NCBI GenBank assembly: GCA_046290225.1
Contig: JBKAGE010000035.1
Span: 416,001-480,000 of the forward strand
Direction of reading: 5' to 3'
Source of the DNA: Bradymonadia bacterium
GTDB taxonomy: Bacteria; Myxococcota_A; Bradymonadia; UBA7976; UBA1532
DNA length: 64,000 bases
The position numbers and the translations under genes are program-made. Positions 27,591 to 44,762 of this stretch are shown in pieces; position 1 is the first letter of the stretch, and each line of letters opens with the position of its first letter. The notes under the pieces are model-generated. The model worked only from the letters and a program-made list of their open reading frames with translations. It was not told the origin of the DNA and ran no database searches.

Positions 27591-30074
27591 TTATGGCGAC
27601 TCTGGCTTCATGCTCAGAGCCGAGTAGTTCGTCGCTGTCATGCTCGATTGAGTCATCTTCACCGACAACAGCGCACCCTTGATGTCGGGTATCAGGTGTG
27701 CGTCGAAATGAGATTCGATGTTCTCGATTTTCACCTGACCTCCAGGCACCCAGTCGCCCAGATGGCTGTAGTGAGTGAGGTCGACCTCGTGCACATCGCC
27801 ATTGATGAGCACATACAGTTTGGGATCAGTGATGATCGTCTCTTCCGGATAAGCGCGGCTGAGCCATAAGTCCAACGAGAAGCGGATGGAGTCATCTCGA
27901 TCGTTGGTGGCGACGACCCCGTTACACGCCGGGCAGAGTTCACCACCCGGTTGAGGCCCGAGGCGCCCGAGGGTCACGCGATCCCAGTCGAAGCGCCCGG
28001 CGCACACGCCATCTTCGCATGGGAGCCAGGCGTCGGGGCCCGGCGCTGACTCTGGCGGGGTGACCTCTTGCCCATCGAGACAACGGTTGTGGGCGCTGGT
28101 CATCTCATCCGACCAGTCGACGGTGATCTCCGAGGGCTCACAGCTGCGATCTTGAGTCATCTCGATGCGGCAGAGTCCCTCGATGAGCCTGCTGCATGCT
28201 TGAATGAGATCTCGGTTTGCGAAGACTTCAGGGCCTGCTGCTTCATCGAGGCATCGGAAGATCTTGGGCAAGAACCGAGCGTCGCACTCAGAGACCAGCG
28301 CCTCGGCGCGGGCAAGGGACACTTGGCGCACGGGGGTGCCATCGCCGGTCTCGCGACAGAGGCCCTCGCCGGTGATGTAGAGCAGCCGGGACATGACGTG
28401 ACCTGAAGGCAGATCGAAGGTGTCGCCTTGATCCCGGCGTACGCCGAGGTGCCCGTAGAGACGGGAGGCCGCTGCGGTGACCAGAGCCGTGGCCACCGAG
28501 GTGCCCGTGAAGACGGCGGGCAGGCGCAGCACACGCTCTCCCGTGTCGTGATCGGCTTCATCGACGCTGCACAGATCCACCCCCGTCCAGTCTTGGACGA
28601 TGTCGGGGTTGTCGGGGAGGGTGATCGAGCCCCCCGAGGTGACATAGACATGCTCGGCGGGCGCCACCAGAGGGGTCTCCTGATCAGGGATCGAGAGGCC
28701 GATGGGATCACGGGCAGCGTTGACGCCGCTGATGGGCGTAATCAGAGCCATCTCGTGGCCTCGATGATCACACGAGGGGTACTGGCCCCAGCGGGCTGGG
28801 TACAGGAGATGAGGGCCCTTGATCGATGGCGGAGGGCACGGATCACCCTCGGTGTCATCGATGCGGTTGTTGAACATGTCAGGTCGGGTGTGGGTGAGGG
28901 GTCGGTTGCCCGCTGCACCCAACACCATGATGGGCTGGCGCGCAGAGTCCATCTGCCGCGCGCCGGAGAGCATGTATCGCACCGGCTCGCCCTGGCTCGC
29001 TTCTACGGTGGAGCACTTGTTGAGGCCCTCTACCGTACGCGGGTGCTCCAGCTCGGGGGCCCACCCCAGGCTCATGTTGAGCAGCAAGGGCTTGTCCGCC
29101 GCTGGCCCCTCGCGCTCGAAGATCGCCTCGTCCAGCGCTTGAGCCAGGTGACCGCTGACCCCGCTGCCGTTGTTGTCGAAGACCCTCAGAGATCTGACCG
29201 CGGCGGAGTACTCGGTGAGAGAAGAGAGCAGGAGCGCCATGCCCAGGCCGTGCAGGTGGGGCGTCTGATCGCCGGTGTCTCCGATGTCGGCGTTGCTCTC
29301 CATGCTGCCGTTGACCCGTACGAAGTCATCGCTCAAACCTGTATCGATGAGCACTGCCGAGGTGGCCTGGCGCCAGGCGGGTTGATTGATGGCGTCCTGG
29401 TTGGGTCGAAAGCTGATCGCCTTTTTATGCCATGTGGTGAGGCGGCCCTCTGCCAGGGCTTGAGGGCCAGAGACACCCATGGCGCACCAGCGCCGGCTCA
29501 CTTTCATGTCATCGGCCAGCCGGTTGGCCGACGCGCTGGCCTCTTGGATGAGCGAGAGCACAGTGCACACATGATTTTCGTGCACCGAGAGCGGCCTCAC
29601 GTCGTGATGGGTGAGCGCGTCGGAGTGGAAAGACACCTGGTAAAAGCGCAGATGACCATCGCGCCGCCACTTCGGGATGCCTTTGTGACTGCGATTGGGC
29701 AGCACCATGTCCACGGATGCGCGGATCATCCGCCCTCGGCCGATCGCATCACATGCGTCTTCGCCACGATCTCCCGGATCGCAGAAGACGTCGCTCATCT
29801 CATTCTCTGCGAGCTGTGCGTTCAGCGCCTCGGCCAGGCGTGCTGCGAATCCGGCGTCTGGGGCTGAAGACCACAAGGGCGTGTCGACATTGAAGACGCG
29901 TGTACGCTCGGTACATGCCGCATTGGGGATGGGCTTGGTGTCACCGTGCGCAGCCAGAAGTACCCGGTCAGATCCCGGTTGAGCCTTCTTGGGGGCGCTG
30001 CAGGCTGGGGCCGCGGCGAGAAACATGGCGGCCAACACGACACCACTGCACCAGTGCTCTTGCTTCATTGTCAC
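27591..30074 (-). CDS. Subtilase (peptidase S8)-like Cys-rich lipoprotein
   Basis: VLIDTG (Asp), HLHG (His), LNMSLG, AAGN (oxyanion Asn), GTSVA (Ser); lipobox-like APAC; C-terminal PQP..CPAC. Confidence 0.82.
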   Translation of the reverse strand: MTMKQEHWCSGVVLAAMFLAAAPACSAPKKAQPGSDRVLLAAHGDTKPIPNAACTERTRVFNVDTPLWSSAPDAGFAARLAEALNAQLAENEMSDVFCDPGDRGEDACDAIGRGRMIRASVDMVLPNRSHKGIPKWRRDGHLRFYQVSFHSDALTHHDVRPLSVHENHVCTVLSLIQEASASANRLADDMKVSRRWCAMGVSGPQALAEGRLTTWHKKAISFRPNQDAINQPAWRQATSAVLIDTGLSDDFVRVNGSMESNADIGDTGDQTPHLHGLGMALLLSSLTEYSAAVRSLRVFDNNGSGVSGHLAQALDEAIFEREGPAADKPLLLNMSLGWAPELEHPRTVEGLNKCSTVEASQGEPVRYMLSGARQMDSARQPIMVLGAAGNRPLTHTRPDMFNNRIDDTEGDPCPPPSIKGPHLLYPARWGQYPSCDHRGHEMALITPISGVNAARDPIGLSIPDQETPLVAPAEHVYVTSGGSITLPDNPDIVQDWTGVDLCSVDEADHDTGERVLRLPAVFTGTSVATALVTAAASRLYGHLGVRRDQGDTFDLPSGHVMSRLLYITGEGLCRETGDGTPVRQVSLARAEALVSECDARFLPKIFRCLDEAAGPEVFANRDLIQACSRLIEGLCRIEMTQDRSCEPSEITVDWSDEMTSAHNRCLDGQEVTPPESAPGPDAWLPCEDGVCAGRFDWDRVTLGRLGPQPGGELCPACNGVVATNDRDDSIRFSLDLWLSRAYPEETIITDPKLYVLINGDVHEVDLTHYSHLGDWVPGGQVKIENIESHFDAHLIPDIKGALLSVKMTQSSMTATNYSALSMKPESP

Positions 30075-30116
30075 CTCACCTCCCGAAAAACCAAACCAGA
30101 GTATGGTGTACAGGGC

Positions 30117-32813
30117 CTAAGGGCGACCCCAAATCTGAAATACTGACCTCACCTCGGGATCTTTACGTGCGAGGGTAGAGATCGCTTTACGAAAAGCCTT
30201 TCCTGGCTCGCTGAGGCCTCCGTGACCGTAGAAAAGTCGAGTAAATTCAGAGCTGAGTCGATCATCCACGTCTCTGCTGGTCGACACCACGGTGCGGGTG
30301 CCCGACGCCAGAAAAACTTCGGGCAGCCCGATCGACTCGTGTTGACTCAGCTCACCCTGAGCGCCTGTCCTGCACCCCGAGAGCACAGCCAGTCTGGCCC
30401 TGGGCTGGATCGAAATGAGCTCGGCCAGGGTGAGCTTCTCTTCACCTGAGAGCTTGAGGTTGATCTTCCAGGGCTGTCGCGAGAGCAGCGCGCCGTGACC
30501 TGCGAAGTGAAACAGAGTGGTGCGCCCCAAACTGCGCGCGATCTCACCCTTTGCCGTCTGATGATCCATGAGGTGGTGCTCGACCTTGAGCGCCTTGAGG
30601 TGATCCGACAGCCAGTGACCTTCTCTGCGGGCGAAGGGTAGATCCTGGTTTGGGTCCATCACGATGACTGGCTGACCAGTGAATTTGACGTCATCCAAGT
30701 TCGACAGTGTTGAGATGGACGGCAACAGACTGATCGAGTGCTCGGGGAACACCAGGTGGCCTCGAAAGGCTTCGTGTTTTCTGTTTGGCACGAAGAAATG
30801 GTGCCTTGCGGCGCCCTCGGTGACTTGTGCGCTGAGGGCGGCGAGCGTCGGCGCGTACTTCACCTGTGTTTTGTCGATGTAGTACGTCTCCCAGTCACGC
30901 CCATCTGGCTTGAAGAAGATGATCGCTTCACCCTCTTCGAGCGAGCTGACGTGATGATCGAAGTAGGACGCCAGCGTACGATCGACGCCTCGTTGGCCGG
31001 CCTCTGCATATTGTTTGTCGAGAGATGACAGCAGTTTGTCTATTCGGTCAGACTCCGCGCGCCTTCGCCGTTTGAGCGCGTCAGCTGACATCAAATCATT
31101 CGATGCCGTCTCTTGCTCCAGTAGAGCGTTAGAAGGTGTGTTTGCTTTGTTGACCGCGAGGTGGCTGATGATCCTGTTGCTGGACAAATCATACAGAGAG
31201 ATCGCCTCTTTCAGATGATCTGAGCTGATCAGCTGATCTGCAAAATGATGAATGAATCTAGATTGGTTGCTGTATATCAGGCTCTTGGAATGGCTGAAGT
31301 CGGCCTTCCTGGCCGAGTCATTCAGGTGCGCCCACGCTTCGTTCAACAGAGCGAGCGTCTCCTCTGGGCGAGAGAGGCCCTGATTGATCTCGGAGATCGT
31401 GCTCTTGGCGATGAAGTTGTAGTAGGTGTTCAGGCCATCAGGGCCATTCTGAGAGGCGTTGACGAGCTGAAACAGTAAGGCTGTTGATGCCTCCTCATGC
31501 CCGAAGTCTCTCATGATCATCGAGAGCGTCAGGATCGAGAAGAGCCTGTCATCCAAGGTTGTTTTGTCGTCATGAATCTGATCGATGATTTGCTCAATGG
31601 ACAGGAGATCACCCGTTGCCAGTCTGATTGAGCTGGATTCGGTCAGCATCAAGCTATAGGCCGAATCAAACCCATGCTTCATGGCAATGTTGAGTGCTGC
31701 GTTGTAGTCCTCTACCGATAAATCAAATAAAGACGAGCTTTGGTGTGCGACTGCAGCCTGGAAATATTCGTATCCTCGGGTCCGGTAGACTGTCATTTGC
31801 TCAACTGGGCTGAGAAATCCCAGGCTCGACTCGATGATCGAGCTGTACCCATCAATCGCACCCCAGCTCTCACCTATCATCGAATTGATCTTCGACATCG
31901 AATAGTTCGAGCTCAGGAAATACCGGAACATCCCGCTCATCGAAGCGATGCGTATGGACTCGAGGGTTTTTTCACCGGCGGAGATGATGTCTCCATCAAA
32001 ACGAGCGAGGACCCCGGCCTGGTATTGAATGGCAGCCAGAGCGCCAGAGGATGCCAGTCCAGCTTCATGGTGGTCGTAGATGTCGAGCGCGCGATCGAGT
32101 TGAGCCTTCGCGAGGCCCATCTGGCCGGTCGTCGAGTAAAGGTGGACCAGTGCAATACAGCGCTGGATGGCCTCGCTGACAGCCCCGACCTGCAATGCTG
32201 TGTCAGCGGCTGTTTTCCATGACTTGATCGCCGCTTCGAAGTCCTGGTTCTGAAAATGGATGCGCCCCAGCTCAACCTCGGCCCACATGCGATCCAGACC
32301 ACTGAGCCTGTCTCTCGAGTCGTTTAACAGGGACTCTGCTTCTGCGAATTTTCCGGCTCTGCGCAGGGCGATGATCGGCTTCAATTCAGGCACCTGGCTC
32401 GGCGCGTGAGCCCAGATCACAGGCCAACGTCGAGCTTGATGCTCACGCTGACTTGCTTCTATCCAGCCATCGCCCTCCCAAGACTCTGGCACGCCCTCGG
32501 TGAAGATCCATCGGTACTCTCCGAGCTGGATCTCTTTGAGCGCACCTGCCTCGCGTTCTCCATTGGGCCCCATGAACCATACCGATACAGAGATGGGGCC
32601 TGTGCTCAGCTGACCATCCAGCCGGATACGGGGTGTGCGTTGGGCATCGTAGATGGGCAGATAAGCCACACCGCGTTTGACCAGTGTGCGTGCGCCGGCG
32701 AGATGGGCCGGCAAAGCTCTTGAAGGCGCTGGAGGTGCAGAGGTGCGCTCAGAGTCGCAGCTGAGTAGAGCGACCGAGAAGAGCATGAGGATCAGATACG
32801 AGACACCATACAT
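30117..32813 (-). CDS. TPR + CHAT (caspase-like) domain protein with lipoprotein signal
   Basis: DPNQDLPFARRE, FHFAGHG (His), VLSGCRTG (Cys), GLPEVFLASG, VDD; TPR-like helices; lipobox LLSC; start may be 32846. Confidence 0.9.
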   Translation of the reverse strand: MYGVSYLILMLFSVALLSCDSERTSAPPAPSRALPAHLAGARTLVKRGVAYLPIYDAQRTPRIRLDGQLSTGPISVSVWFMGPNGEREAGALKEIQLGEYRWIFTEGVPESWEGDGWIEASQREHQARRWPVIWAHAPSQVPELKPIIALRRAGKFAEAESLLNDSRDRLSGLDRMWAEVELGRIHFQNQDFEAAIKSWKTAADTALQVGAVSEAIQRCIALVHLYSTTGQMGLAKAQLDRALDIYDHHEAGLASSGALAAIQYQAGVLARFDGDIISAGEKTLESIRIASMSGMFRYFLSSNYSMSKINSMIGESWGAIDGYSSIIESSLGFLSPVEQMTVYRTRGYEYFQAAVAHQSSSLFDLSVEDYNAALNIAMKHGFDSAYSLMLTESSSIRLATGDLLSIEQIIDQIHDDKTTLDDRLFSILTLSMIMRDFGHEEASTALLFQLVNASQNGPDGLNTYYNFIAKSTISEINQGLSRPEETLALLNEAWAHLNDSARKADFSHSKSLIYSNQSRFIHHFADQLISSDHLKEAISLYDLSSNRIISHLAVNKANTPSNALLEQETASNDLMSADALKRRRRAESDRIDKLLSSLDKQYAEAGQRGVDRTLASYFDHHVSSLEEGEAIIFFKPDGRDWETYYIDKTQVKYAPTLAALSAQVTEGAARHHFFVPNRKHEAFRGHLVFPEHSISLLPSISTLSNLDDVKFTGQPVIVMDPNQDLPFARREGHWLSDHLKALKVEHHLMDHQTAKGEIARSLGRTTLFHFAGHGALLSRQPWKINLKLSGEEKLTLAELISIQPRARLAVLSGCRTGAQGELSQHESIGLPEVFLASGTRTVVSTSRDVDDRLSSEFTRLFYGHGGLSEPGKAFRKAISTLARKDPEVRSVFQIWGRP

Positions 32814-33138
32814 ATCGGGAGGGCTACACTCCGAATCGAGCATCAAGCGGGTGACTGAGTATCGCCCTGATGCCGGCGCTTGTCACCTGTGGGGGGCCAG
32901 CGCCTCGCAGAGATGCGGGGGTGCAGAGGCTGGCTGCTCTGGTGGCCACGGCTGGCTCAGCCAGGCCGATCGATTTGTCGTGAATGGCTACTCCAGTGAC
33001 CACTCTCTGGGGAGCAGATCTGCCTGCATCAGGGGATGCTTCAACGGATTTCAAAGGTTTTCAGGCTGGATCGACCCTTGCTAACACCACCCGATCTCGA
33101 GCCGCCAGATGCGCGGCAGTGTGACGGGAGGCCTCATC

Positions 33139-36100
33139 ATGAGCCTGAGCAGAACATTTTTATCTCGGGGCGTGGCCCTGATCTTCATCGGGGCCCTCGC
33201 CGTTGGCTGTGCAGGCCAGGACCCCGACAACGACGACATCGACCGTGGCGTCGGTGGTGCTGGTGCCGGTGGTATGGCCGGCGAGGGTGGAGCCGGCGGT
33301 GCTGGCAACCGTGCCGGCGGTGGCCAGTTCGACTGCATCGACAACGATCGTGACGGTTACGGCCGTGGCCCTGGTTGTTTGGGCCCTGACTGCGACGATA
33401 ACGACAACCGCGTGAACCCCGTGGCCGTCGAGCAGTGCAACGGGGTGGACGACGACTGCAACGGGGTGACGGACGACAACCTCATCGCCCCTGATTGTGC
33501 CCAGCAGTTCGGTGTGTGTGCCGGTGCCCGCAAGACCTGTGGTGGCGCCGAGGGCTGGCTCGACTGCAGCGGCCCCGCGAGCTATGGCCCCCAGTACGAA
33601 GGTGGCTCCGAGAGCCTGTGTGATGGCCTCGACAACAACTGCGACGGCCGTACCGACGAGGGCTGCCCCTGCAACCCTGGCCAGTCCCGACCCTGTGGTC
33701 AGGCCGAAGGTGAGTGTCGTCAGGGCGTGCAGAACTGCAGCGACGGCGGCACCTGGGGCGCCTGCGAGAGCGAGGTTGGTCCCCAGAACGAGGTCTGTGA
33801 CGGCCGGGACAATGACTGTGACGGCAACATCGACGAAGAGGTCGGCGCCATGGCGCCCGACTGCGAGCGCACCGCCGGTGTCTGCGCCGGTGCCAGCGCC
33901 CGCTGCCTCGGCCAGCAGGGTTGGGGCGCGTGTGGTGCTCAGGAGTACGGTGAGACCTGGCGCGCCGAAGAAGGTCCTGGCGATTGCGATGGCCTCGACA
34001 ACGACTGCGACGGCAACACCGACGAGTCCTGCAACTGCCAGGATGGCGAGACCCAGCCCTGTGGCAGCAACATCGGCCTGTGCACCCCCGGCACTCAGAC
34101 CTGTGTGAACGGCGCCTTTGGTGAGTGCCGGAACGCTGTTGAGGCGGCCCCCGAGGTGTGCAACGGCGCCGACGATGACTGCGACAGCAACGTGGACGAG
34201 GGTGTCGAAGCCCCCGCCTGCGCCCTGAACCAGGGTGTCTGCGCGGGCGCTGTGCAGGCCTGCAATGGTGAGGCAGGCTTCGCTGAGTGTGATGCCGCCC
34301 GCTACCTGGCTCAGAGCCCCGCTTATGTCGAGGTGGAGACTGCCGAGCACTGTGACGGCCTCGACAATGACTGTGACGGTCTGCAGGACGAAGAGTGCGA
34401 GTGCGTCGACGGCGCCACGCAGGTGTGTGGCGTGAACGTGGGCGCCTGCACCCAGGGTGAGCAGGTCTGTGCCGGTGGCCGCTTCGGCGAGTGCTCCGGT
34501 GTGGCCCCTGTGGCCGAGACCTGTGACGCCGTGGACAACGACTGCGACGGCAACGTCGACGAAGAGATCGAGACCCCTGTGTGCCCCTTGGACCAGGGTG
34601 TTTGTGCCGGCGCCCGTCAGCGCTGCGTCGATGGCGCCTTCGGGGCCTGTGGCGAGCAGGAGTACGGCCCGCAGTACGAGGCCGACGAGGCCAGCTGCGA
34701 TGCCGTGGACAACGACTGTGATGGTGAGGTGGACGAGGGCTGCGGCTGTGTCGACGGCACCGTGCAGTCCTGTGGCAGCAACGAGGGCGCCTGCTCCCAG
34801 GGTACCCAGACCTGCGCCGGCGGTGAGTTCCAGCCCTGTGAGGGGGCCATCGATCCCGTGGACGAGCAATGCAACGGCCTCGACGACGACTGTGACGGCA
34901 ACACCGACGAGGATCTCGTCGGCCCCGCCTGTGCCCTGCAGGTGGGCGTCTGCGCCGGCAGCGTGCAGGTCTGTGGTGGCGAGGGTGGCTTCGCCGCCTG
35001 TGGTGCCGAGCAGTATGGCCCCCGCTACGTCGCCGAAGAGACCGACGCTGATTGTGACGGCGCCGACAACGACTGCGACGGCAACATCGACGAGTCCTGT
35101 GAGTGTGTCGTCGGCCAGCCCCAGCCCGCTTGTGGCACCAACGTCGGCGCCTGCGAGTCCGGGGTGCTGGTGTGCAACAACGGCGTCTTCGGTGAGTGCG
35201 AAGGCGAGGTGCCCCCGGTGGCCGAGCTTTGCGACGGCGTGGACAACGACTGTGATGGCAGCACCGACGAGGACATCCAGGCCCCTGCGTGCGCCCTGCA
35301 GGTGGGCGTCTGCGCAGGCAGCGTGCAGCAGTGCGCCGGTGATCTGGGCTTCGTCGAGTGCGTGAACGAAGAGTACGGCCCCAACTGGGTGGCCGAAGAG
35401 ACCGCCGACAACTGCGACGGCCTCGACAACGACTGCGATCTACTCGTCGACGAGGCCTGCGCGCCCCCGGCGGTGGTCATCAGCGAGATCTACTACGACG
35501 GCCCTGGTCGTGACGGCCCCAACGAGTTCATCGAGCTCGCTGGCCCGCCCGGGCAGCGCCTCAACGGCATGAAGCTCACCGCTTGGAACGGCAACAATGG
35601 TGAGGAGTACGCCGAGATCTCCCTCGACGGGCTGCGGATCCCCTTCAACGGCTTCCTGTTGCTCGTGGACGAGAACGCCAGCGAAATCATGACTGATCTC
35701 GCTGATGCCGTGCTGCCCAACGTCGATCTTCAGAACGGCCCTGACAGCCTCTGGCTCACGTGGAACGAGGACGAGTTGCTCGACGCCGTGGGCTATGGCG
35801 TCTTTGGCGAAGAGGACAACTTCCTCGGCGAGGGCACCCCGGCGCCTGCCGCCGTGGAGCAGAGCATCACCCGTGACGACAACCTCACCGACAGCGATGA
35901 CAATGGCGCCGACTTTGTCACCAGCGGCAACACCGCGGTGGGCGTGCCCACCCCTGGCGGTGCGCCGATCCCCCGGATGCACATCTCACTGCGCTGGGGC
36001 CTCGACGGCACCGACGTCGATCTGCACCTCATCCGTGAGGGTGGGCTGTTCTTCTCGGTACCCGACGACGCTTTCTACGCCAACCGGACCCCCGACTGGG

Positions 36101-36438
36101 GCGTGCTCGGTGACGCCTCGGACAACCCCCGCCTCGACCGAGACGACGTCGACGGCTTGGGGCCCGAATTCATGTTCTATCAGAACCCCGTGCCGGGCCG
36201 TTATCGGGTGGTGATCCACTACTGGGATGCCTTCATCGACGCCATGACCGCAGGGCCTGTGGACGCCACTGTGAAGGTCTTCATCGATGGTGAGCCGACC
36301 CTGACCCTGACGAACACGGTCACTGGTGAGCTGCCCTACTGGGGTGTGGCGGAGATCGCTGTGGGTGAGGATGGGATGATCATGGTTACAGAAGAGAACG
36401 TGATCAGCGCCGACATCTTGGAAGGCCCCCAGCCCTGA
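33139..36438 (+). CDS. Large Cys-rich repeat lipoprotein with lamin-tail-like and YfaP/DUF2135-like C-terminal domains
   Basis: Lipobox AVGC; about 12 CDGxDNDCDG repeats; VVISEIYYD..NEFIEL..LQNGPD; LRW..TDVDLH..LDRDDVDGLGPE. Confidence 0.85.
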   Translation: MSLSRTFLSRGVALIFIGALAVGCAGQDPDNDDIDRGVGGAGAGGMAGEGGAGGAGNRAGGGQFDCIDNDRDGYGRGPGCLGPDCDDNDNRVNPVAVEQCNGVDDDCNGVTDDNLIAPDCAQQFGVCAGARKTCGGAEGWLDCSGPASYGPQYEGGSESLCDGLDNNCDGRTDEGCPCNPGQSRPCGQAEGECRQGVQNCSDGGTWGACESEVGPQNEVCDGRDNDCDGNIDEEVGAMAPDCERTAGVCAGASARCLGQQGWGACGAQEYGETWRAEEGPGDCDGLDNDCDGNTDESCNCQDGETQPCGSNIGLCTPGTQTCVNGAFGECRNAVEAAPEVCNGADDDCDSNVDEGVEAPACALNQGVCAGAVQACNGEAGFAECDAARYLAQSPAYVEVETAEHCDGLDNDCDGLQDEECECVDGATQVCGVNVGACTQGEQVCAGGRFGECSGVAPVAETCDAVDNDCDGNVDEEIETPVCPLDQGVCAGARQRCVDGAFGACGEQEYGPQYEADEASCDAVDNDCDGEVDEGCGCVDGTVQSCGSNEGACSQGTQTCAGGEFQPCEGAIDPVDEQCNGLDDDCDGNTDEDLVGPACALQVGVCAGSVQVCGGEGGFAACGAEQYGPRYVAEETDADCDGADNDCDGNIDESCECVVGQPQPACGTNVGACESGVLVCNNGVFGECEGEVPPVAELCDGVDNDCDGSTDEDIQAPACALQVGVCAGSVQQCAGDLGFVECVNEEYGPNWVAEETADNCDGLDNDCDLLVDEACAPPAVVISEIYYDGPGRDGPNEFIELAGPPGQRLNGMKLTAWNGNNGEEYAEISLDGLRIPFNGFLLLVDENASEIMTDLADAVLPNVDLQNGPDSLWLTWNEDELLDAVGYGVFGEEDNFLGEGTPAPAAVEQSITRDDNLTDSDDNGADFVTSGNTAVGVPTPGGAPIPRMHISLRWGLDGTDVDLHLIREGGLFFSVPDDAFYANRTPDWGVLGDASDNPRLDRDDVDGLGPEFMFYQNPVPGRYRVVIHYWDAFIDAMTAGPVDATVKVFIDGEPTLTLTNTVTGELPYWGVAEIAVGEDGMIMVTEENVISADILEGPQP

Positions 36439-39100: not shown

Positions 39101-39574
39101 GTGGCCAATCGACCCGGACGCAATGACCCCTGCCACTGTGGCAGTGGCTTGAAGTACAAGAAATGCCATCTCGCTGCCGACGAGGCTGCTGCCGCTGCGG
39201 CGCGGAAGGCGGTTCAGGTCGAGGCGGAGCCCGGGGCACCCTCCATCACTCAGGCTGCACCGATGAAGACCGTGGAAGATCCCACGGTGAAGACTGCGGT
39301 GCTCATCGGCGCAGCGTCGTTGGTGCTGGCCATCGTCGTGGGCATCATGACCGACGCTTCGACGGGCTTCACCATCGCCGGTGCCGGTGGCCTGATCGCA
39401 CTGCTCTATGCGGGCCTGCGCAACCCGCCTTCACCTCACGAGAACCCCGGGGATCCGGCGGCGCTCAACTTCGGCATGTCTGGCGATGGGCAGGACGACG
39501 ATCAGCAGGGGGCACAACAGCCCCAGGTCCGCCGGCGCCCTCAGGGCCCTCGGCCACCGGCTCGCCGTCGCTGA
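39101..39574 (+). CDS. SEC-C motif membrane protein
   Basis: GRNDPCHCGSGLKYKKCH followed by two TM helices. Confidence 0.88.
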   Translation: MANRPGRNDPCHCGSGLKYKKCHLAADEAAAAAARKAVQVEAEPGAPSITQAAPMKTVEDPTVKTAVLIGAASLVLAIVVGIMTDASTGFTIAGAGGLIALLYAGLRNPPSPHENPGDPAALNFGMSGDGQDDDQQGAQQPQVRRRPQGPRPPARRR

Positions 39575-41096
39575 CCTGCTCTACAGCGAACATCCGCTGT
39601 ACGTCGTGCATGATCTCCGCATAGATCGCCGGCGGCAGATCACCCAGTGGGATCAAACTGCGATCGTCGGCCCGCCGTGGAGACGGAAAGTCGTTGTGGG
39701 TGATGGCACTGGGTTGATGCTGCAGGCAGTAGAGCCACTCGACGTCATCGGTGGCCTCGCTGGTGCGCACGACGACGTCGATGGCCCCCGAAGGCCCTGG
39801 CAGCGTGCGCACCCACCCCACGTGCCACCCCATTCGCAACACTGAAGTCCATGGCCCGCCTGCGAAGGCCTCAGGGCGCTCATGGATGTCTCGCCATCGA
39901 ATGCCGTCGAGCCCTCGGTAGACCCGTGATCGCTGCAGGTGGCTCGGGCATGTCTCCATGGGCCGGCCGAGCTGATCGAAGGGCGCTTGGAGGTCGTGAT
40001 ACTCGAAGTGCGCTTGCCACAACCCCACGATCTCAGCGTCAAGGCGGGCAGGGTGAGCGGGGCGTACCCATGTGTGCGGGGTGGTGAACAGCTCGTCATC
40101 TACATTGATGAGTGCGCCGTCCTCTCTGGGTCGGAACGTGCCGACAGGCTGGCCACGATCGTCGAGCGCGGTCCACACCATGTGCCGAGCAGGGCACGCT
40201 CTGAGGGGGTGGTGCAGCATATGGGCGGTGAACCCGCCGGCAGACCACACACGGCCGGAGAGGGTGGCATCTCGGAGTCGGGTACAGATGACTTCGAACG
40301 TGGCGCTCGCTTGATCGGACAACGCTTTGATCCGAGCGCGGTGGCCAGATGAGCCACGGGTGGTGGGGGCGGCGTCGACAGGCTCGCCTTCGAGCCACCA
40401 TCGTAAACCTTTGGGGCTCACGGGCATGGCCTCCACCAGAGGCGGACGCTCCGACAGCCGCCAACGCTGGTCTTGGATGTTGATGGTGGGGGTGGCGTGG
40501 TCGAGCAAGGTGCCGATGGCCACCCGTCGCGCCTGGGCCGCAGCCTCGAGGTGGCCCATGATCGCCTCTGCCAGGGACCTGCGCTGAGCGTCACGAAGTG
40601 TGGGGTAGAGGGCGCCGAGGGCAAAAATGGGCCCCCGTGCATCCGGGCGGGCGGTGATGGCAGCGCCCAGGGCGTCGATGGCGAAGGCGGCCAGTCGACC
40701 CCGCCGCCGTCGGGCCCAACGCAGGACCAGTGGGCAGAAATGGGTCAGCAAGAGTCCGGGGCTCGCCAACGCAGCACAAGGGATCAGCACGAACTTGTCC
40801 CTGACGTCGGCCCCTGCTTTCTGGAACCCTTCGAGCAGGGCTTTGACGAGCAGATCTGCGCCATCGGGCTCGAGCAGAGGCAGACAGCGCGCCAGCGGAT
40901 CACACACCTCGGCCTGGGCCTCCCGTGCCTGAGCGTCGAGCAGCCATGTCAGGACCATCTCCGGCATCAGAAAGCCCGAGCGCCACCCTGGTGTGGGCAA
41001 CGACTCGGGATCGAGCCAGTGTCTGATCTGCGCCTTTACGGGCGCTGCACTGGCTTCCATCACCAGCGCGTCGATGGTCTGTTGGGCGTCGAGCAT
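39465..41096 (-). CDS. DUF4132-like protein
   Basis: RL..A..SGRVW, HHPL...ARHMVW, FRPREDG, HP..L..W, APFDQLGR, C-terminal L..LPP..YAE.MHD; GGAGG before 41096. Confidence 0.7.
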   Translation of the reverse strand: MLDAQQTIDALVMEASAAPVKAQIRHWLDPESLPTPGWRSGFLMPEMVLTWLLDAQAREAQAEVCDPLARCLPLLEPDGADLLVKALLEGFQKAGADVRDKFVLIPCAALASPGLLLTHFCPLVLRWARRRRGRLAAFAIDALGAAITARPDARGPIFALGALYPTLRDAQRRSLAEAIMGHLEAAAQARRVAIGTLLDHATPTINIQDQRWRLSERPPLVEAMPVSPKGLRWWLEGEPVDAAPTTRGSSGHRARIKALSDQASATFEVICTRLRDATLSGRVWSAGGFTAHMLHHPLRACPARHMVWTALDDRGQPVGTFRPREDGALINVDDELFTTPHTWVRPAHPARLDAEIVGLWQAHFEYHDLQAPFDQLGRPMETCPSHLQRSRVYRGLDGIRWRDIHERPEAFAGGPWTSVLRMGWHVGWVRTLPGPSGAIDVVVRTSEATDDVEWLYCLQHQPSAITHNDFPSPRRADDRSLIPLGDLPPAIYAEIMHDVQRMFAVEQVSDGEPVAEGPEGAGGPGAVVPPADRRPAHRQTCRS

Positions 41097-41127
41097 GTGA
41101 TCCTCCATTCAGGCAGTGATGTGCCTT

Positions 41128-44100
41128 TCAGGTGACGTGTTGCGCGAGGGCGTCGAGTTGAGCCACGAACCGGCTCGCAGGGCGATGCTGGGCACGGCGA
41201 TGTACCACCGAGACTGTGCGCGCGATGGCCGCTCGATGACGATCGATGAAACCTGGCCCCCGATCGTTGTCGGCGATCAGGGTGGTGACGGCGTCGAGGG
41301 TGGCGAAGGCCACACCGGGGTGCCGTCTGAAGACGCCAGCCACCAGCCCCGCCTCGAGATCGGGCAGCGCCCCGCTGGGTGCGGCGAGCAGCGTGTCGGC
41401 GATCCAGCCCACCACCTCTTCAGGCCGCCGACGCGCTTCGTCGTCGAGGGCGAGCAACAGATGACTCTGCAGCAAGGTGAGATGGGCCGCGTCGAGCATG
41501 TGCACGACGGGGCCGAGGGTGCCTCGACCCGTGGCATGGTGCTCGATCCACCCGCTGAGGGCCTCGATCAAGGCAGGTTGATCGGGTGAAGCTGTCAGCT
41601 GGGCGGCGATGAGGGCCACGGCACCTTCCATGCCGTCCTGGCTCCAGCCTCTCTCGGGGCTGAGATCGCCTGCTGCGCGCTCCAGGGTGCCTGTGAGCTC
41701 ACCGGCCTGGGCAAAGGGCACCAGACAGTTGAGGTAGGCCGGCCGCGAGAAGTCCCATCGGGCCCATCCGTCTTCATCGAGGGCGTCGAACCGCTCGGCG
41801 ATGAAGGTGGCCAGCGCGCGTGGATGCTCGGGTGCGCCCAGATGCACGGCGAGGCCGCCGGTGAGCACATCGCTCTGCCGAATGTGACTCGCGAGGCTCA
41901 ACCAGTAGAAGCCCGGCCCGTCGGCATCGGCGATGAGGCACTCGGCGAGGTGTCGGGCCAACAACTCAAGGGTGCCCTCGTCGAGAACCCCATGTTGGGC
42001 ATGGCCGATGAGCCAACGTTGCAGATCGTGTCTGAAGGCGGTGCCGCGGCGACGATCTGCTTGAGCGAGGGCCAGGAGAATGCGCACTCGATCCTGGTCG
42101 ACCGCCATGGGCTGACCTGGTGGATCGAGCAACGACAGATGCATCGACTGCAGCGGGCTCGGGCCGTCGAGATGCCGATCGATCCAGCGACGCACCACCT
42201 CGAACCGTTGCTCCGGCTGCTCGGGCCAACGTCCCAAGGTCGACCAGGCGTGTAGCAAGTGGCTGCGGACCTCAGGATAGGGGGTGTGCATGAGCCAGTG
42301 ACTCAGCGGCTCGCCGAGGGCCTCGATGCAGAGCGTACGGTGAGCGGCGCCTTCCGAGCCCACCAGCTCGTCGACGCGACCGATCATCCACCGCAACAGC
42401 GCCGCGAGCCCACAGGCGTATCGCCCAGCGCCTCGACCGCTCGCTGGGGCGCCAGAGACCGTGCGGTCGGGCAGGCCGTCGAAGCCACCGTCAGCGAGGC
42501 GGGCGGCGGCGAATCGGGTGAGCGTCTCTGTGTCGAGCAACCCGCGACGCCAGGCGCCGTCGAGCAGACGGCTGCGCTCGCGGATCAACCGCTCACCTTC
42601 GAAGGGCAACGTGATCACGATCACTGCCATCCAGGGCACCGAGTCGGGGTTGCGGCTGTTGGCTTGCACCACCGTGGCCCAGAGATCGTCGAGCGTCTCG
42701 GGGCTCGGCCCCGTGAAGAGCGCCCCTCGGGCCATCTCTTTGAGCAGGGCCAATACGCTCCGTACAGGCCCGCGCTCCGGACGCGCGGCGCGCTCAAGCA
42801 GCAGCTGGCCCGCCACGCGCTCGAGGCGCTCTCGGTAGAGGTGGCTCACGGGCCAGTCCCAGACACCGCCACCCACCGCTCGGATGAGGTGCAGATATCG
42901 GGTGGAGGCCACCTGAGCCTGGGGTGATCCTTCCGGGCCCTCGGGCTGGCCGATCAGGCGCAGACGCTCCGCTGCTTGTTGTGTCAGGCCCGGCTGGGCA
43001 GACAAGATCCCGTGAAAACTCAACATCGTGAGTCGGTCGAGATCAGCGCTGAGGGCACCGTCATGATGGGTCCAGCGATCCACCATGCGTCGACACATCG
43101 ACACGGGGGCCAGCAGACAGATCAACAGCTGTCCTCGCGCCCTCAATGCAGGATCGAGGGCATCGAGCATTTGCACTGGCTGATCTGCGAGGCGTTCGAT
43201 GGCTTTCAAGAGGCGAGCGCCGTTGTGTCGGGCGCTCAACGGATCAGCGCCAGAGGGTCGAGGCTCGGGGAGTGCGGACAAGGCCGAGATACGCAGCGCG
43301 AGATCGGCACAGAGCACTGCATCTCCAGGGGCCAGGGCGTCATCGTCGAGCAACGCGTCGACCTGCTGGGCCACTGCACACCATGGAGGGCGCTCGAGCA
43401 CGAGCCCACCTGCAGACCAGCCGTCCACTCGAGCCACAGCCCGAAGCGCGTTGTGATCGAGGGGATCAGCTTGGGTGATGTCGTGCAGACCTCTGCGGCC
43501 TACCCGACCTGCGGGGGGTGGCTCTGCCTGACGTTGCATGTGCAACATCTCGTCGAGGACCGCAGTGATCTTCTGCTCAGGGCCCAAATCCGAAGGTTGA
43601 GCAGAGAGATCGATGAGATCGACACCGCGTTGACGCCAATAATCTCTTTGAGTGGCCGAAGTGCGCAGATGCAGCGACCACGCCATGGGTACATCGTCGC
43701 CCAGCCGTTGACGGACCCAGTCCTGGATCGCCCTGAAGGCCGGATCGTCGAGGCTGAAGCCCACGAAGAGCACCCGCGACTCCACGAAGCAGCGGGTGAT
43801 GAAGACCTGGATCAGGCGGTGCCGCTCGGTATAGGCCAGAAAATCATCCCCGGAGATCACGATGTCTGCGGGGTTGCGTGCGAGGCAGCCGTTCATCTTG
43901 ATGATGCGGGGTGGCTGTCGAGGGCGGGCCAGATCACGGCCTTCGGTGACCACCTGAGGCACGATGTGGGCTTGCTCGAAGGCGCGCTCGAGCAGAGTGT
44001 CGAAGTTGGTGGTGATGATCTCCTGGAAGTTGAGCTCCACCACCCGGTCGTGCACCGCCCCCGGGATGTACTCAGCGTCGGGGATCGCCCCCATCACGGC

Positions 44101-44391
44101 GTTCACCAGGGCGTTGCGACCACGGGCTGCACGGAAGTAGTCGGCGATGCGCAGCGCGTCCTGCTCTTGAGCCAGATCGTCTTCGAGGCCAGCGCGGAGC
44201 TTCTCCACCAGTGACCACCAGCCTGGCAGGCGCTGATGACCACCATCTTTGCGCTTGGCGTTCATCGACAGCCCTGCCCCAGCGAAGAGGACCACTCGCC
44301 CACGGGCGAGCTCGGCCCCCAGCTCTCTCAGAGAGGCGCGCCCCTGGGCGTCGACGAAGTCGAGCATGGGTGTCTTGGTGGGGGTCGTCAT
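41128..44391 (-). CDS. SIR2-like domain protein with long helical C-terminal region
   Basis: VLFAGAGLS, LPGWWSL, IITTNFDTLLE, IIKMNG, LFVGFSLDDP in the first 270 aa. Confidence 0.9.
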   Translation of the reverse strand: MTTPTKTPMLDFVDAQGRASLRELGAELARGRVVLFAGAGLSMNAKRKDGGHQRLPGWWSLVEKLRAGLEDDLAQEQDALRIADYFRAARGRNALVNAVMGAIPDAEYIPGAVHDRVVELNFQEIITTNFDTLLERAFEQAHIVPQVVTEGRDLARPRQPPRIIKMNGCLARNPADIVISGDDFLAYTERHRLIQVFITRCFVESRVLFVGFSLDDPAFRAIQDWVRQRLGDDVPMAWSLHLRTSATQRDYWRQRGVDLIDLSAQPSDLGPEQKITAVLDEMLHMQRQAEPPPAGRVGRRGLHDITQADPLDHNALRAVARVDGWSAGGLVLERPPWCAVAQQVDALLDDDALAPGDAVLCADLALRISALSALPEPRPSGADPLSARHNGARLLKAIERLADQPVQMLDALDPALRARGQLLICLLAPVSMCRRMVDRWTHHDGALSADLDRLTMLSFHGILSAQPGLTQQAAERLRLIGQPEGPEGSPQAQVASTRYLHLIRAVGGGVWDWPVSHLYRERLERVAGQLLLERAARPERGPVRSVLALLKEMARGALFTGPSPETLDDLWATVVQANSRNPDSVPWMAVIVITLPFEGERLIRERSRLLDGAWRRGLLDTETLTRFAAARLADGGFDGLPDRTVSGAPASGRGAGRYACGLAALLRWMIGRVDELVGSEGAAHRTLCIEALGEPLSHWLMHTPYPEVRSHLLHAWSTLGRWPEQPEQRFEVVRRWIDRHLDGPSPLQSMHLSLLDPPGQPMAVDQDRVRILLALAQADRRRGTAFRHDLQRWLIGHAQHGVLDEGTLELLARHLAECLIADADGPGFYWLSLASHIRQSDVLTGGLAVHLGAPEHPRALATFIAERFDALDEDGWARWDFSRPAYLNCLVPFAQAGELTGTLERAAGDLSPERGWSQDGMEGAVALIAAQLTASPDQPALIEALSGWIEHHATGRGTLGPVVHMLDAAHLTLLQSHLLLALDDEARRRPEEVVGWIADTLLAAPSGALPDLEAGLVAGVFRRHPGVAFATLDAVTTLIADNDRGPGFIDRHRAAIARTVSVVHRRAQHRPASRFVAQLDALAQHVT

Positions 44392-44762
44392 GGCCGACCT
44401 CCCAGCACCGCCAGCAGCTGCCGGGCGTCTTCTGCAGCTTCACGCTTGGTCACGATGGCTGAGGGGCGGACCCCCGCCGTCATCATCCGGTGGATGTGAT
44501 CCGCACTGGCACCGTACTTGGTGTAGAACGCCACGGGGATCTGCGGATCAAAGGCCTGCAACCAGGCCAGTACCTGAGGCCCGGCAGGCTCCATCTCGAA
44601 GTCGAGCACCACACCATCAGGGCGAAAGTCGTCGAGGAGCGCCCGCAAAGTCTCTTCGCTCTCCACCCAGCACAGCGACTCCACAGCGTGGCCGTCCCGG
44701 CCCAGGTAGAGCGCCAGGCGCTCGCTGGTGTCCGGCTCGTCGTCAATCAACAAAATGCGCAC
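44388..44762 (-). CDS. Single-domain response regulator (receiver)
   Basis: ILLIDDE, VVLDFEM (phospho-Asp), FYT, VTK; ATGA overlap with SIR2 gene. Confidence 0.88.
   Translation of the reverse strand: MRILLIDDEPDTSERLALYLGRDGHAVESLCWVESEETLRALLDDFRPDGVVLDFEMEPAGPQVLAWLQAFDPQIPVAFYTKYGASADHIHRMMTAGVRPSAIVTKREAAEDARQLLAVLGGRP

Follow-up and report, generated by a model that had tools for sequence, protein, structure and literature searches.

We describe here a bacterial system whose conserved unit consists of a kinase, then a stand-alone receiver (REC), then a protein that joins an SIR2 domain to a helical solenoid, and which probably, at a rough probability of 0.55, acts as a His-Asp phosphorelay of three components, the last of them a sirtuin whose NAD chemistry departs from the standard. 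In the literature covered, the switch of SIR2 defence effectors is either a phage protein or a nucleotide messenger; a phosphorelay-gated sirtuin acting through the docking of a free receiver would, if true, be a third input for SIR2 effectors and would link ordinary signalling with effectors that consume NAD. Our literature search returned no description of such a kinase-REC-SIR2 system or of a natural His-to-Asn SIR2, supplementary neighbourhood tables being a place where the operon may be listed. All three proteins are soluble, and the system makes sharp predictions, which concern D54 of REC, N167 of the SIR2 protein and a named interface.

The locus and its genes

The features of the locus, within the window (the whole stretch of 64,000 nucleotides that was analysed), and the kinase encoded elsewhere in the genome are as follows:

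44388-44762, minus strand: REC gene, 124-aa stand-alone receiver (PF00072, E 1e-10)
44601-44603, minus strand: codon of the REC phospho-acceptor Asp54
41128-44391, minus strand: SIR2 protein gene, 1087 aa (PF13289 at aa 124-260, E 1e-23)
43522-44391, minus strand: SIR2_2 domain (aa 1-290 of the SIR2 protein), with the motifs of the NAD site preserved
43891-43893, minus strand: codon of Asn167 of the SIR2 protein, in place of the catalytic His
41128-43506, minus strand: middle region and C-terminal solenoid, entirely helical, aa 296-1087 (AF2 model)
about 41425-42594, minus strand: predicted REC-binding groove, aa 600-989 of the SIR2 protein (complex model)
39465-41108, minus strand: DUF4132 gene, 547 aa (PF13569 at aa 252-385, E 2e-21)
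39101-39574: SEC-C gene, convergent to the DUF4132 gene, 110 bp overlap
Contig C5, 70843-76461: family kinase of this genome, about 1,870 aa

The three genes singled out in a preliminary description are real, with open reading frames where it had located them, and its account of a stand-alone REC whose gene overlaps the SIR2 gene start (ATGA), and of an N-terminal SIR2-like domain, agrees with what we find. The DUF4132-like gene that it put about 30 bp beyond SIR2 lies 19 bp away by its first ATG and 31 bp by its second, and the 92 PF02518 matches of the genome all fall outside the window, in line with its report of no histidine kinase there. A promoter and terminator scan at the locus gave chance-level results only, and a search for sequencing runs listed no RNA run, four low-share DNA runs yielding short pieces only.

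The DUF4132 gene, proposed earlier as a partner, is rejected as one. PF13569 is absent from all eight other SIR2-family carriers, tblastn with the DUF4132 protein gave no match in any other fetched family locus, and the domain has seven matches in this genome, the locus copy sitting in the shortest open frame; its absence from the other carriers and its copy number here identify the gene as an incidental downstream neighbour.

Conservation and distribution of the kinase-REC-SIR2 unit

REC lies directly upstream of SIR2 in 7/7 carrier genomes that have upstream DNA, which bears out the idea of a dedicated SIR2 partner, and these carriers span three distant lineages with different flanks. The kinase is present in all nine carriers, in three of them as partial sequences only. 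Kinase, REC and SIR2 are collinear in five genomes (G043, G435, G238, G887 and G042, the last across two contigs overlapping by 19 nt), while in G041 the kinase is adjacent to REC-SIR2 but divergent, and this genome has a second, SIR2-dedicated REC copy. Among 209 genomes searched with both profiles, the SIR2 family occurs in eight and the kinase in nine, with both in all eight, figures to be read with the profiles having been built partly from the genomes searched and with kin not being independent. Kinase-REC pairs without an adjacent SIR2 also exist (G041 contig C25, G894 and G469, the latter two close to contig ends), and the pair may therefore serve outputs besides SIR2.

The source genome encodes one family kinase, one family SIR2 and one family-type REC (E 7e-36, against 3e-16 for the next-best match). 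The receiver had been called an orphan, a label that no longer fits, since the family kinase is encoded on contig C5, where it is unlinked to REC-SIR2 and stands among about 90 GHKL proteins. A junction of C5 with the window was considered and ruled out: C5 ends in a dispersed repeat, and from REC to the nearer end of contig C35 the distance is 86 kb.

A chance grouping, in which the REC is an orphan, the SIR2 is degenerate and neither has a functional link to the other or to the DUF4132 gene, is very improbable. The unlinked kinase in this genome and the incidental DUF4132 gene would fit such a reading, but for REC and SIR2 it is largely refuted by their adjacency in every testable carrier across three lineages with different flanks, and it also runs against the REC-solenoid complex model described below.

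The family is rare. At least nine genomes carry it, each an assembly of the uncultured type and 6.3-9.4 Mb in size; the SIR2 family occurs in 1 of 113 genomes of its own class, and in 1 of 401 in a phylum sample, the source genome alone, with two candidates scored per genome. Matches were obtained in 12 of 41 near-relative genomes, besides the gene of this locus over the SIR2 domain only. Of the 80 loci listed from a metagenome scan none was a family member, and of the 80 listed from a genome scan at least three were; plasmids and phages gave no solenoid match and viral contigs no kinase relative. Flanking genes differ at each locus and are housekeeping genes, no other output gene is conserved, and none of the loci falls within a defence island.

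Kinase and receiver

The kinases form a family of giant cytoplasmic histidine kinases of about 1,900 aa with two WD40-like propellers (fold match with Z 29.0 and an rmsd of 3.2 A across 305 aa); the kinase of this genome is modelled in the order propeller, helical, propeller, helical, DHp, HATPase. The highest 19-residue hydropathy is 1.25-1.68 across 10 kinases, with no clear membrane helix, and the C5 kinase is 32% identical to that of G041 over 2012 aligned positions. A GAF-like reading of aa 1470-1645 follows from alignment pattern only, with no Pfam or PDB match, and the ESM Atlas gave no usable match for the sensor part.

The two-component features are intact, comprising the kinase H, N and G boxes, the REC Asp, Thr and Lys, and conserved linkage. 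H1654, N1774 and the G boxes of the kinase are invariant in 10/10; the REC of this locus retains D7, D8, D54, T81 and K106, and D7, D8, D54 and K106 are invariant both in 9/9 locus-linked RECs and across 42 family RECs.

An SIR2 domain with an altered active site

DSR2 is the top structural match of the SIR2 domain (8wyc_C; Z 30.5 and an rmsd of 2.4 A across 263 aa by structure comparison), and the fold also matches ThsA (Z 29.5) and KomC (Z 26.1). S42, N129 and D131 are invariant in 25/25 aligned family members, N129 representing the catalytic Asn (DSR2 N133). The catalytic His (DSR2 H171) is replaced by N167, the aligned residue being Asn in 22/25 members, and Asn marks a tree clade (SH-aLRT 96) of 34 rows, with 30 Asn and one each of His, Ser, Ala and unassigned. 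The clade-wide occurrence of Asn, together with the invariance of S42, N129 and D131, argues against decay of the site. The domain may be catalytically dead, as H171A abolishes activity in DSR2 and H146A in KomC, and the KomC H146N variant, deposited with NAD fragments according to the title of PDB 9xvc, can be read as a trapping mutant. The clade constitutes a natural test of the role of the sirtuin His in SIR2_2 enzymes, and of whether the subfamily holds transferases or NAD sensors.

The DSR-type NADase suggested previously is sustained in its DSR2-like SIR2 fold, and is called into question at the catalytic His; canonical activity of this type is doubtful from the sequence, because the equivalent of H171 is Asn. 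Neither this change nor the kinase elsewhere in the genome had been noticed in the preliminary description.

It is unlikely that the protein is a DSR2-like abortive-infection NADase, fully active despite the Asn, for which a phage protein would be the direct trigger and REC a built-in antitoxin resembling DSAD1; this is the reading of the preliminary description less its DUF4132 gene. Such an enzyme would agree with DSR2 as the closest solved structure, with the best PADLOC match (Dsr2, E 2e-36, SIR2 domain only), with the patchy distribution within its class, with the invariant W252 near the DSR2 tetramer residue Y260, and with the one family member (P0007) that has His. However, neither DSR2 nor KomC is active without the His, the loci are not those of defence islands, and a dedicated kinase accompanies SIR2 in every carrier, so the trigger is probably relayed. 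The DSR family models score 118.6 bits (NF041819) and 32.7 bits (NF041818) against a cut-off of 1400, over the SIR2 domain only; the nearest His-bearing long SIR2 (P0048) is likewise alignable over that domain only, and an ESM Atlas search with the SIR2 protein returned generic SIR2_2 clusters only.

The helical solenoid and its modelled complex with REC

The C-terminal 800 aa or so, described earlier as helical and lacking a P-loop, consist nearly throughout of helices in the AF2 model, whose mean pLDDT is 85.8, and aa 296-1087 have no Pfam, PADLOC or NCBIfam match. A hidden NTPase is ruled out, the Walker A motif GxxxxGK[ST] occurring in 0/25 family members and the model having no beta-sheet core after aa 290. 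Compared over the whole chain, the protein and DSR2 give a TM of 0.23-0.30; its solenoid is all-helical, but the rmsd is 13-16 A over 530-720 aligned residues.

A model of REC with the solenoid, the SIR2 domain left out and no phosphate included, passes with a complex score of 0.75, against 0.02 for the best of three controls; the mark is reached by 116/157 solved and 2/215 mismatched pairs, counts that are roughly valid with the alignments of our own used here. At least 86% of contacts are common to the runs and partner pLDDT is at least 81. REC residues in modelled contact include 8-12, 15, 19, 21-32, 56-59, 82 and 106-110, and REC is predicted to dock by its phospho-site face into the concave side of the solenoid. 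Conservation of the modelled interface is no higher than that of its surroundings (solenoid 0.32 vs 0.39; REC 0.56 vs 0.61), with R709, G783 and T784 as exceptions on the solenoid, whose interface columns hold no conserved Gln or Asn. Solved REC/helical-repeat complexes such as RapH-Spo0F exist, and the pass could owe something to them.

It is possible that signal flows in reverse, with the Asn-SIR2 domain a non-catalytic sensor of NAD+ or ADP-ribose and the solenoid a sink or Rap-like phosphatase that masks the active site of REC and tunes kinase-REC signalling to other targets by NAD status. The coverage of the REC active-site face in the model, the Asn in 22/25 members with an intact NAD pocket, the kinase-REC pairs lacking an adjacent SIR2 and the housekeeping flanks are all consistent with this. 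In this genome, however, REC is coupled to SIR2 and not to the kinase, the second copy in G041 is SIR2-dedicated, the loci share no further conserved output gene, a conserved Gln or Asn is missing from the solenoid interface, and N129 and D131 are invariant.

A proposed phosphorelay

In the phosphorelay that we favour, the soluble kinase would sense a cue in the cytoplasm, in all likelihood a macromolecule that its propellers bind, and would phosphorylate Asp54 of REC, a transfer suggested by the conserved linkage and the intact catalytic residues. REC would dock in the concave face of the solenoid as modelled and, because it would do so by its phospho-site face, its phosphorylation state would set whether or how it is bound. 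We lean slightly towards a switch in which REC keeps the enzyme inactive until it is phosphorylated, since a tightly coupled REC accompanies SIR2 wherever it is seen and since the phosphate-free modelled interface covers the surface that the kinase would need. The switched SIR2 domain would then bind and process NAD+, and since Asn replaces the catalytic His, it is likelier to be an ADP-ribosyl transferase or a NADase of low rate than a fast DSR2-type NADase. The purpose would most likely be a response to conflict or severe stress, such as growth arrest, and a role in defence is inferred. A more tentative and rather improbable elaboration is that the giant propeller kinase detects an invader or damage, and that free phosphorylated REC in a DSR2-like pocket switches an Asn sirtuin that transfers ADP-ribose to a target or makes a signal derived from it, and does not merely break NAD+ down; this would be a mode of signalling new to bacterial immunity or stress arrest.

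Comparison with known systems

Like DSR2, the protein has an N-terminal SIR2_2 domain followed by a long helical solenoid, and in both a small protein ligand occupies the C-terminal solenoid, which in DSR2 is the binding region for the tail tube and DSAD1 (PMC11087589) and here is a site that is modelled only. The ligand here would be a host-encoded REC, whereas those of DSR2 are a phage tail tube activator and the inhibitor DSAD1; DSR2 has His where this family has Asn; and DSR1 and DSR2 act as single genes, unlike a system with its upstream REC and co-occurring kinase. The STAND P-loop NTPase that follows SIR2 in Avs5 and SIR2-STAND proteins is absent here. Thoeris and Kongming likewise have a separate sensor relaying a signal to an SIR2_2 effector, as we propose for this system, but their signal is a nucleotide where here it would be a phospho-Asp protein, and the present loci have no TIR, SLOG or HAM1 partner and the His is missing. 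Partners of the TIR+SLOG, HerA, pAgo and HAM1 kinds gave no PADLOC match among 63 flanking proteins and no Pfam match in 29 neighbour proteins or the SIR2 protein itself.

Rap phosphatases are helical-repeat proteins that cover the active-site face of the single-domain REC Spo0F; the modelled complex resembles this general description of a helical repeat over the REC active-site face, but Rap is without a sirtuin domain. In SirTM the catalytic His is replaced by Gln137 and the enzyme has ADP-ribosyl transferase activity (PMC8120803), an amide residue thus standing for the His in both cases (Gln in SirTM, Asn here). SirTM (class M) is a separate sirtuin subfamily (PMC12700824), and its linkage to a macrodomain, GcvH-L and lipoate ligase is absent among the immediate neighbours here. 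Ambrosia is reported to be an anti-phage system that requires a histidine kinase and a REC; its REC bears a wHTH and is proposed there to act on transcription of RM-like genes (bioRxiv 10.1101/2025.09.30.679545), whereas the REC of the present system is single-domain and, in the model, appears to dock on an enzyme.

Conservation of the kinase-REC-SIR2 neighbourhood

In the window, a stand-alone receiver (REC, 124 aa), a 1087-aa SIR2 protein and a DUF4132 gene lie where the preliminary description had placed them, and Pfam agrees for each; the ATGA overlap of REC with the SIR2 gene is present in the sequence, and the DUF4132 gene follows closely, at a measured gap of 19 bp (about 30 bp in the earlier estimate). 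The absence of a histidine kinase from the window was likewise borne out, with 0 of 92 genome HATPase_c matches inside it. REC had also been called an orphan; this no longer stands, since the source genome (G000) encodes one full-length kinase of the family on another contig, C5.

Genes of the source genome (window coordinates unless a contig is named)
44388-44762 (-): REC; open reading frame, Pfam Response_reg above cut-off
41128-44391 (-): SIR2 protein, 1087 aa; open reading frame, Pfam SIR2_2 at aa 124-260 above cut-off
39465-41108 (-): DUF4132 gene, 547 aa; open reading frame, Pfam DUF4132 at aa 252-385 above cut-off
C5:70843-76461 (+), L176:8844-14462 of the locus stretch: kinase orthologue, 1,872 aa; full-length, 32% identity over 2012 aligned positions

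The window also carries tandem genes for a subtilase-like protein and a TPR-CHAT protease (27591-32846, -) and a probable lipoprotein of 1,109 aa rich in Cys/Asp repeats (33109-36438, +).

Kinase, REC and SIR2 protein form a real and rare three-part system of the sensor-signal-SIR2 kind, apparently undescribed so far. The SIR2 family occurs in nine genomes (G000, G041, G042, G043, G238, G435, G463, G469 and G887), with G238 in a set yielding 2/301, G435, G463 and G469 in one yielding 4/151 and G887 in one yielding 3/24. In the large sets few candidates were scored per genome; the assemblies in general are incomplete, and kin among them do not count as independent. The taxonomic family of G043 includes four carriers, every one of them belonging to its 7 genomes of at least 6.3 Mb and none to its 65 smaller ones. 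The preliminary description had proposed examining conservation of the REC-SIR2 neighbourhood, and a family REC lies directly upstream of the SIR2 gene, overlapping it or within about 40 bp, in 7/7 carriers with upstream DNA, a count that omits G463 and G469, where a contig start cuts the SIR2 gene. Upstream of REC stands a giant histidine kinase (1,870-1,950 aa, HisKA and HATPase_c C-terminal), collinear with REC and SIR2 in G043, G435, G887, G238 and G042; the G042 arrangement, which also has an ATGA overlap, spans two contigs with a 19-nt overlap, and the G238 kinase is a 520-aa C-terminal part only. In G463 and G469 the kinase is on other contigs, partial or in pieces. The G238 fragment (L184:8891-10453) and the three pieces in G469 (C207/C335) may each reflect sensor loss or assembly error. 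For G435 the labels conflict: the source assigns its REC (stretch L192) to Candidatus Omnitrophota, and the genome search puts it in the family of an Aminicenantes genome.

When both profiles, built partly from sequences of several of these same genomes, were run on 209 genomes, the SIR2 family was found in 8 and the kinase in 9, with both present in 8/8 SIR2 carriers. In the ninth kinase genome, G894, the distance from the kinase-REC pair to a contig end is 157 bp, and a search of that genome found no family SIR2. In G041 (L016:3029-13381) the arrangement is duplicated: a kinase with a second REC of its own stands divergent to the REC-SIR2 pair, and another kinase-REC pair lies at a separate site without SIR2. 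The thiolase gene of G894 directly abuts the kinase, whereas in G041 REC-SIR2 sits between them, which suggests that REC-SIR2 moves as one unit.

The DUF4132 gene, proposed earlier as a partner, is an incidental neighbour. PF13569 is held by 0/8 other carriers and occurs seven times in G000 (on C17, C61, C35, C1, C78 and C52), and the genes downstream of SIR2 vary by locus (thiolase, amidohydrolase, ATPase, TonB receptor, vWA protein, glycosyltransferase), which rules it out as a component. The window copy has the shortest frame of the seven and at its tail shares 110 bp with a convergent SEC-C gene.

A putative cytoplasmic sensor kinase

In 10/10 aligned kinase sequences the residues H1654 and N1774 and the G boxes do not vary. 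The model of aa 1-1150 (pLDDT 81.0) consists of two beta-rich domains (35-424 and 580-935) separated by helices (427-578), with more helices beyond the second domain. This second domain resembles WD40 propellers (Z 29.0, rmsd 3.2 A over 305 aa); matches to double-propeller proteins extend over 37-939 of the model. No clear membrane helix was found in the kinase, which on that ground reads as a cytoplasmic sensor. Homologues are few (6 matches for the middle region), and an Atlas search with the kinase gave no usable match. No REC lies behind the C5 kinase gene, and G000 has one family-type REC. Behind the kinase (C5:76470-76770) is a dispersed element of about 300 bp with terminal inverted repeats. 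It recurs genome-wide in dozens of copies that share about 70-86% identity, many of them located at contig ends; with the appearance of a MITE or REP-type repeat, it could have helped separate the kinase from REC-SIR2 in G000.

Fold and altered active site of the SIR2 protein

Searching 1.84 billion representatives with the SIR2 protein returned 5,647 matches, 47 with E up to 1e-30; the full-length family is small, and its named members belong to Acidobacteriota, Thermoanaerobaculia among them. The AF2 model (pLDDT 85.8, pTM 0.75) has a Rossmann-type SIR2 domain up to about aa 290 and only helices beyond, which together with Pfam SIR2_2 upholds the architecture first described. The DSR layout suggested earlier holds for this order of domains, and DSR2 is the top structural match to the SIR2 domain (Z 30.5, rmsd 2.4 A, 263 residues). 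However, whole-chain TM against DSR2 is only 0.23-0.30, and curated DSR models match the SIR2 domain alone, far under cut-off. Though DSR-like in build, the protein is not a DSR member, because the catalytic His is replaced, the gene does not occur as a single-gene system and the likeness is not full-length. Two more SIR2_2 genes in G000 (C35:500316-501080 and C56:29124-29774) fall outside this family; their open frames measure 598 and 534 aa, and about one in four related genomes holds their relatives.

N167 stands opposite DSR2 H171. Among 25 proteins of nearly full length (the 24 that remained of the top 30 matches once six fragments were excluded, plus P0151 from a separate search), this column holds 22 Asn, 1 His, 1 Ser and 1 Ala, and S42, N129 and D131, equivalent to S51, N133 and D135 of DSR2 (PMC11850899), are retained in 25/25. 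In a quick-search, midpoint-rooted tree of 145/152 proteins (7 dropped for too little SIR2 domain), the family is a single clade (SH-aLRT 96) in which Asn occupies 30 of 34 rows; the rows outside the clade comprise 98 with His, 3 with Asn and 10 unassigned. P0079, P0093 and P0099 represent a second, independent His-to-Asn change within a large His-bearing clade of SIR2 proteins, for the most part 1,150-1,300 aa long. The sirtuin His is thought to polarise ribose hydroxyls (PMC12700824); H171A abolished toxicity and NAD depletion in DSR2 (PMC11850899), H146A almost abolished KomC activity (PMC13454610), and SirTM, an ADP-ribosyl transferase, has Gln in this place (PMC8120803). Because the Asn is conserved within an otherwise invariant NAD pocket, the alignment suggests altered chemistry or pure NAD sensing rather than decay.

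Modelled docking of REC on the solenoid

A complex model of REC with SIR2 aa 296-1087 scored 0.75 (best control 0.02), with at least 86% of contacts common to the runs and partner pLDDT of at least 81; the docking mark was reached by 116/157 solved and 2/215 mismatched pairs, counts that are rough with our own alignments. REC makes contact near D8 and through helix 1, K106-A110 and the loop that follows D54, which we take to be the phospho-site face and kinase-docking surface, and the solenoid contributes a groove across aa 600-989. In DSR2, both the tail tube, which activates, and DSAD1, which inhibits, bind the C-terminal solenoid (PMC11087589). Against docking, conservation is no higher in the interface columns than around them (0.32 vs 0.39). 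Complexes of receivers with helical repeats exist, for example RapH-Spo0F, and the score could owe to such learned complexes, which counts against binding. The model supports, but does not show, that REC binds the solenoid.

Relation to known systems and possible role

Among defence systems with a kinase and a receiver, Ambrosia comes nearest; its REC, as reported there, differs in bearing a wHTH and is proposed to act on transcription (bioRxiv 10.1101/2025.09.30.679545). Kaur et al. describe receivers independent of kinases in conflict systems (PMC8195603), and cRec domains near phage sirtuins are reported always to lack an accompanying kinase (PMC9503650); a kinase-REC-SIR2 operon is not described in the available text of either source. 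Searches of openly accessible main-text literature yielded no description of such a system.

The odds of a defence or abortive role are close to even. In its favour, the SIR2 domain has anti-phage effectors as its closest solved relatives, the system is patchily distributed and a propeller would be a suitable sensor for pattern detection; against it, the flanks are mostly housekeeping genes, and nothing was found in the phages, plasmids and viral contigs searched. PADLOC, suggested by the preliminary description, saw no known defence system among 63 flanking proteins; six had matches, four generic and two strong (PDC-M08B and PDC-S01), the latter being single candidates 4-10 kb from SIR2.
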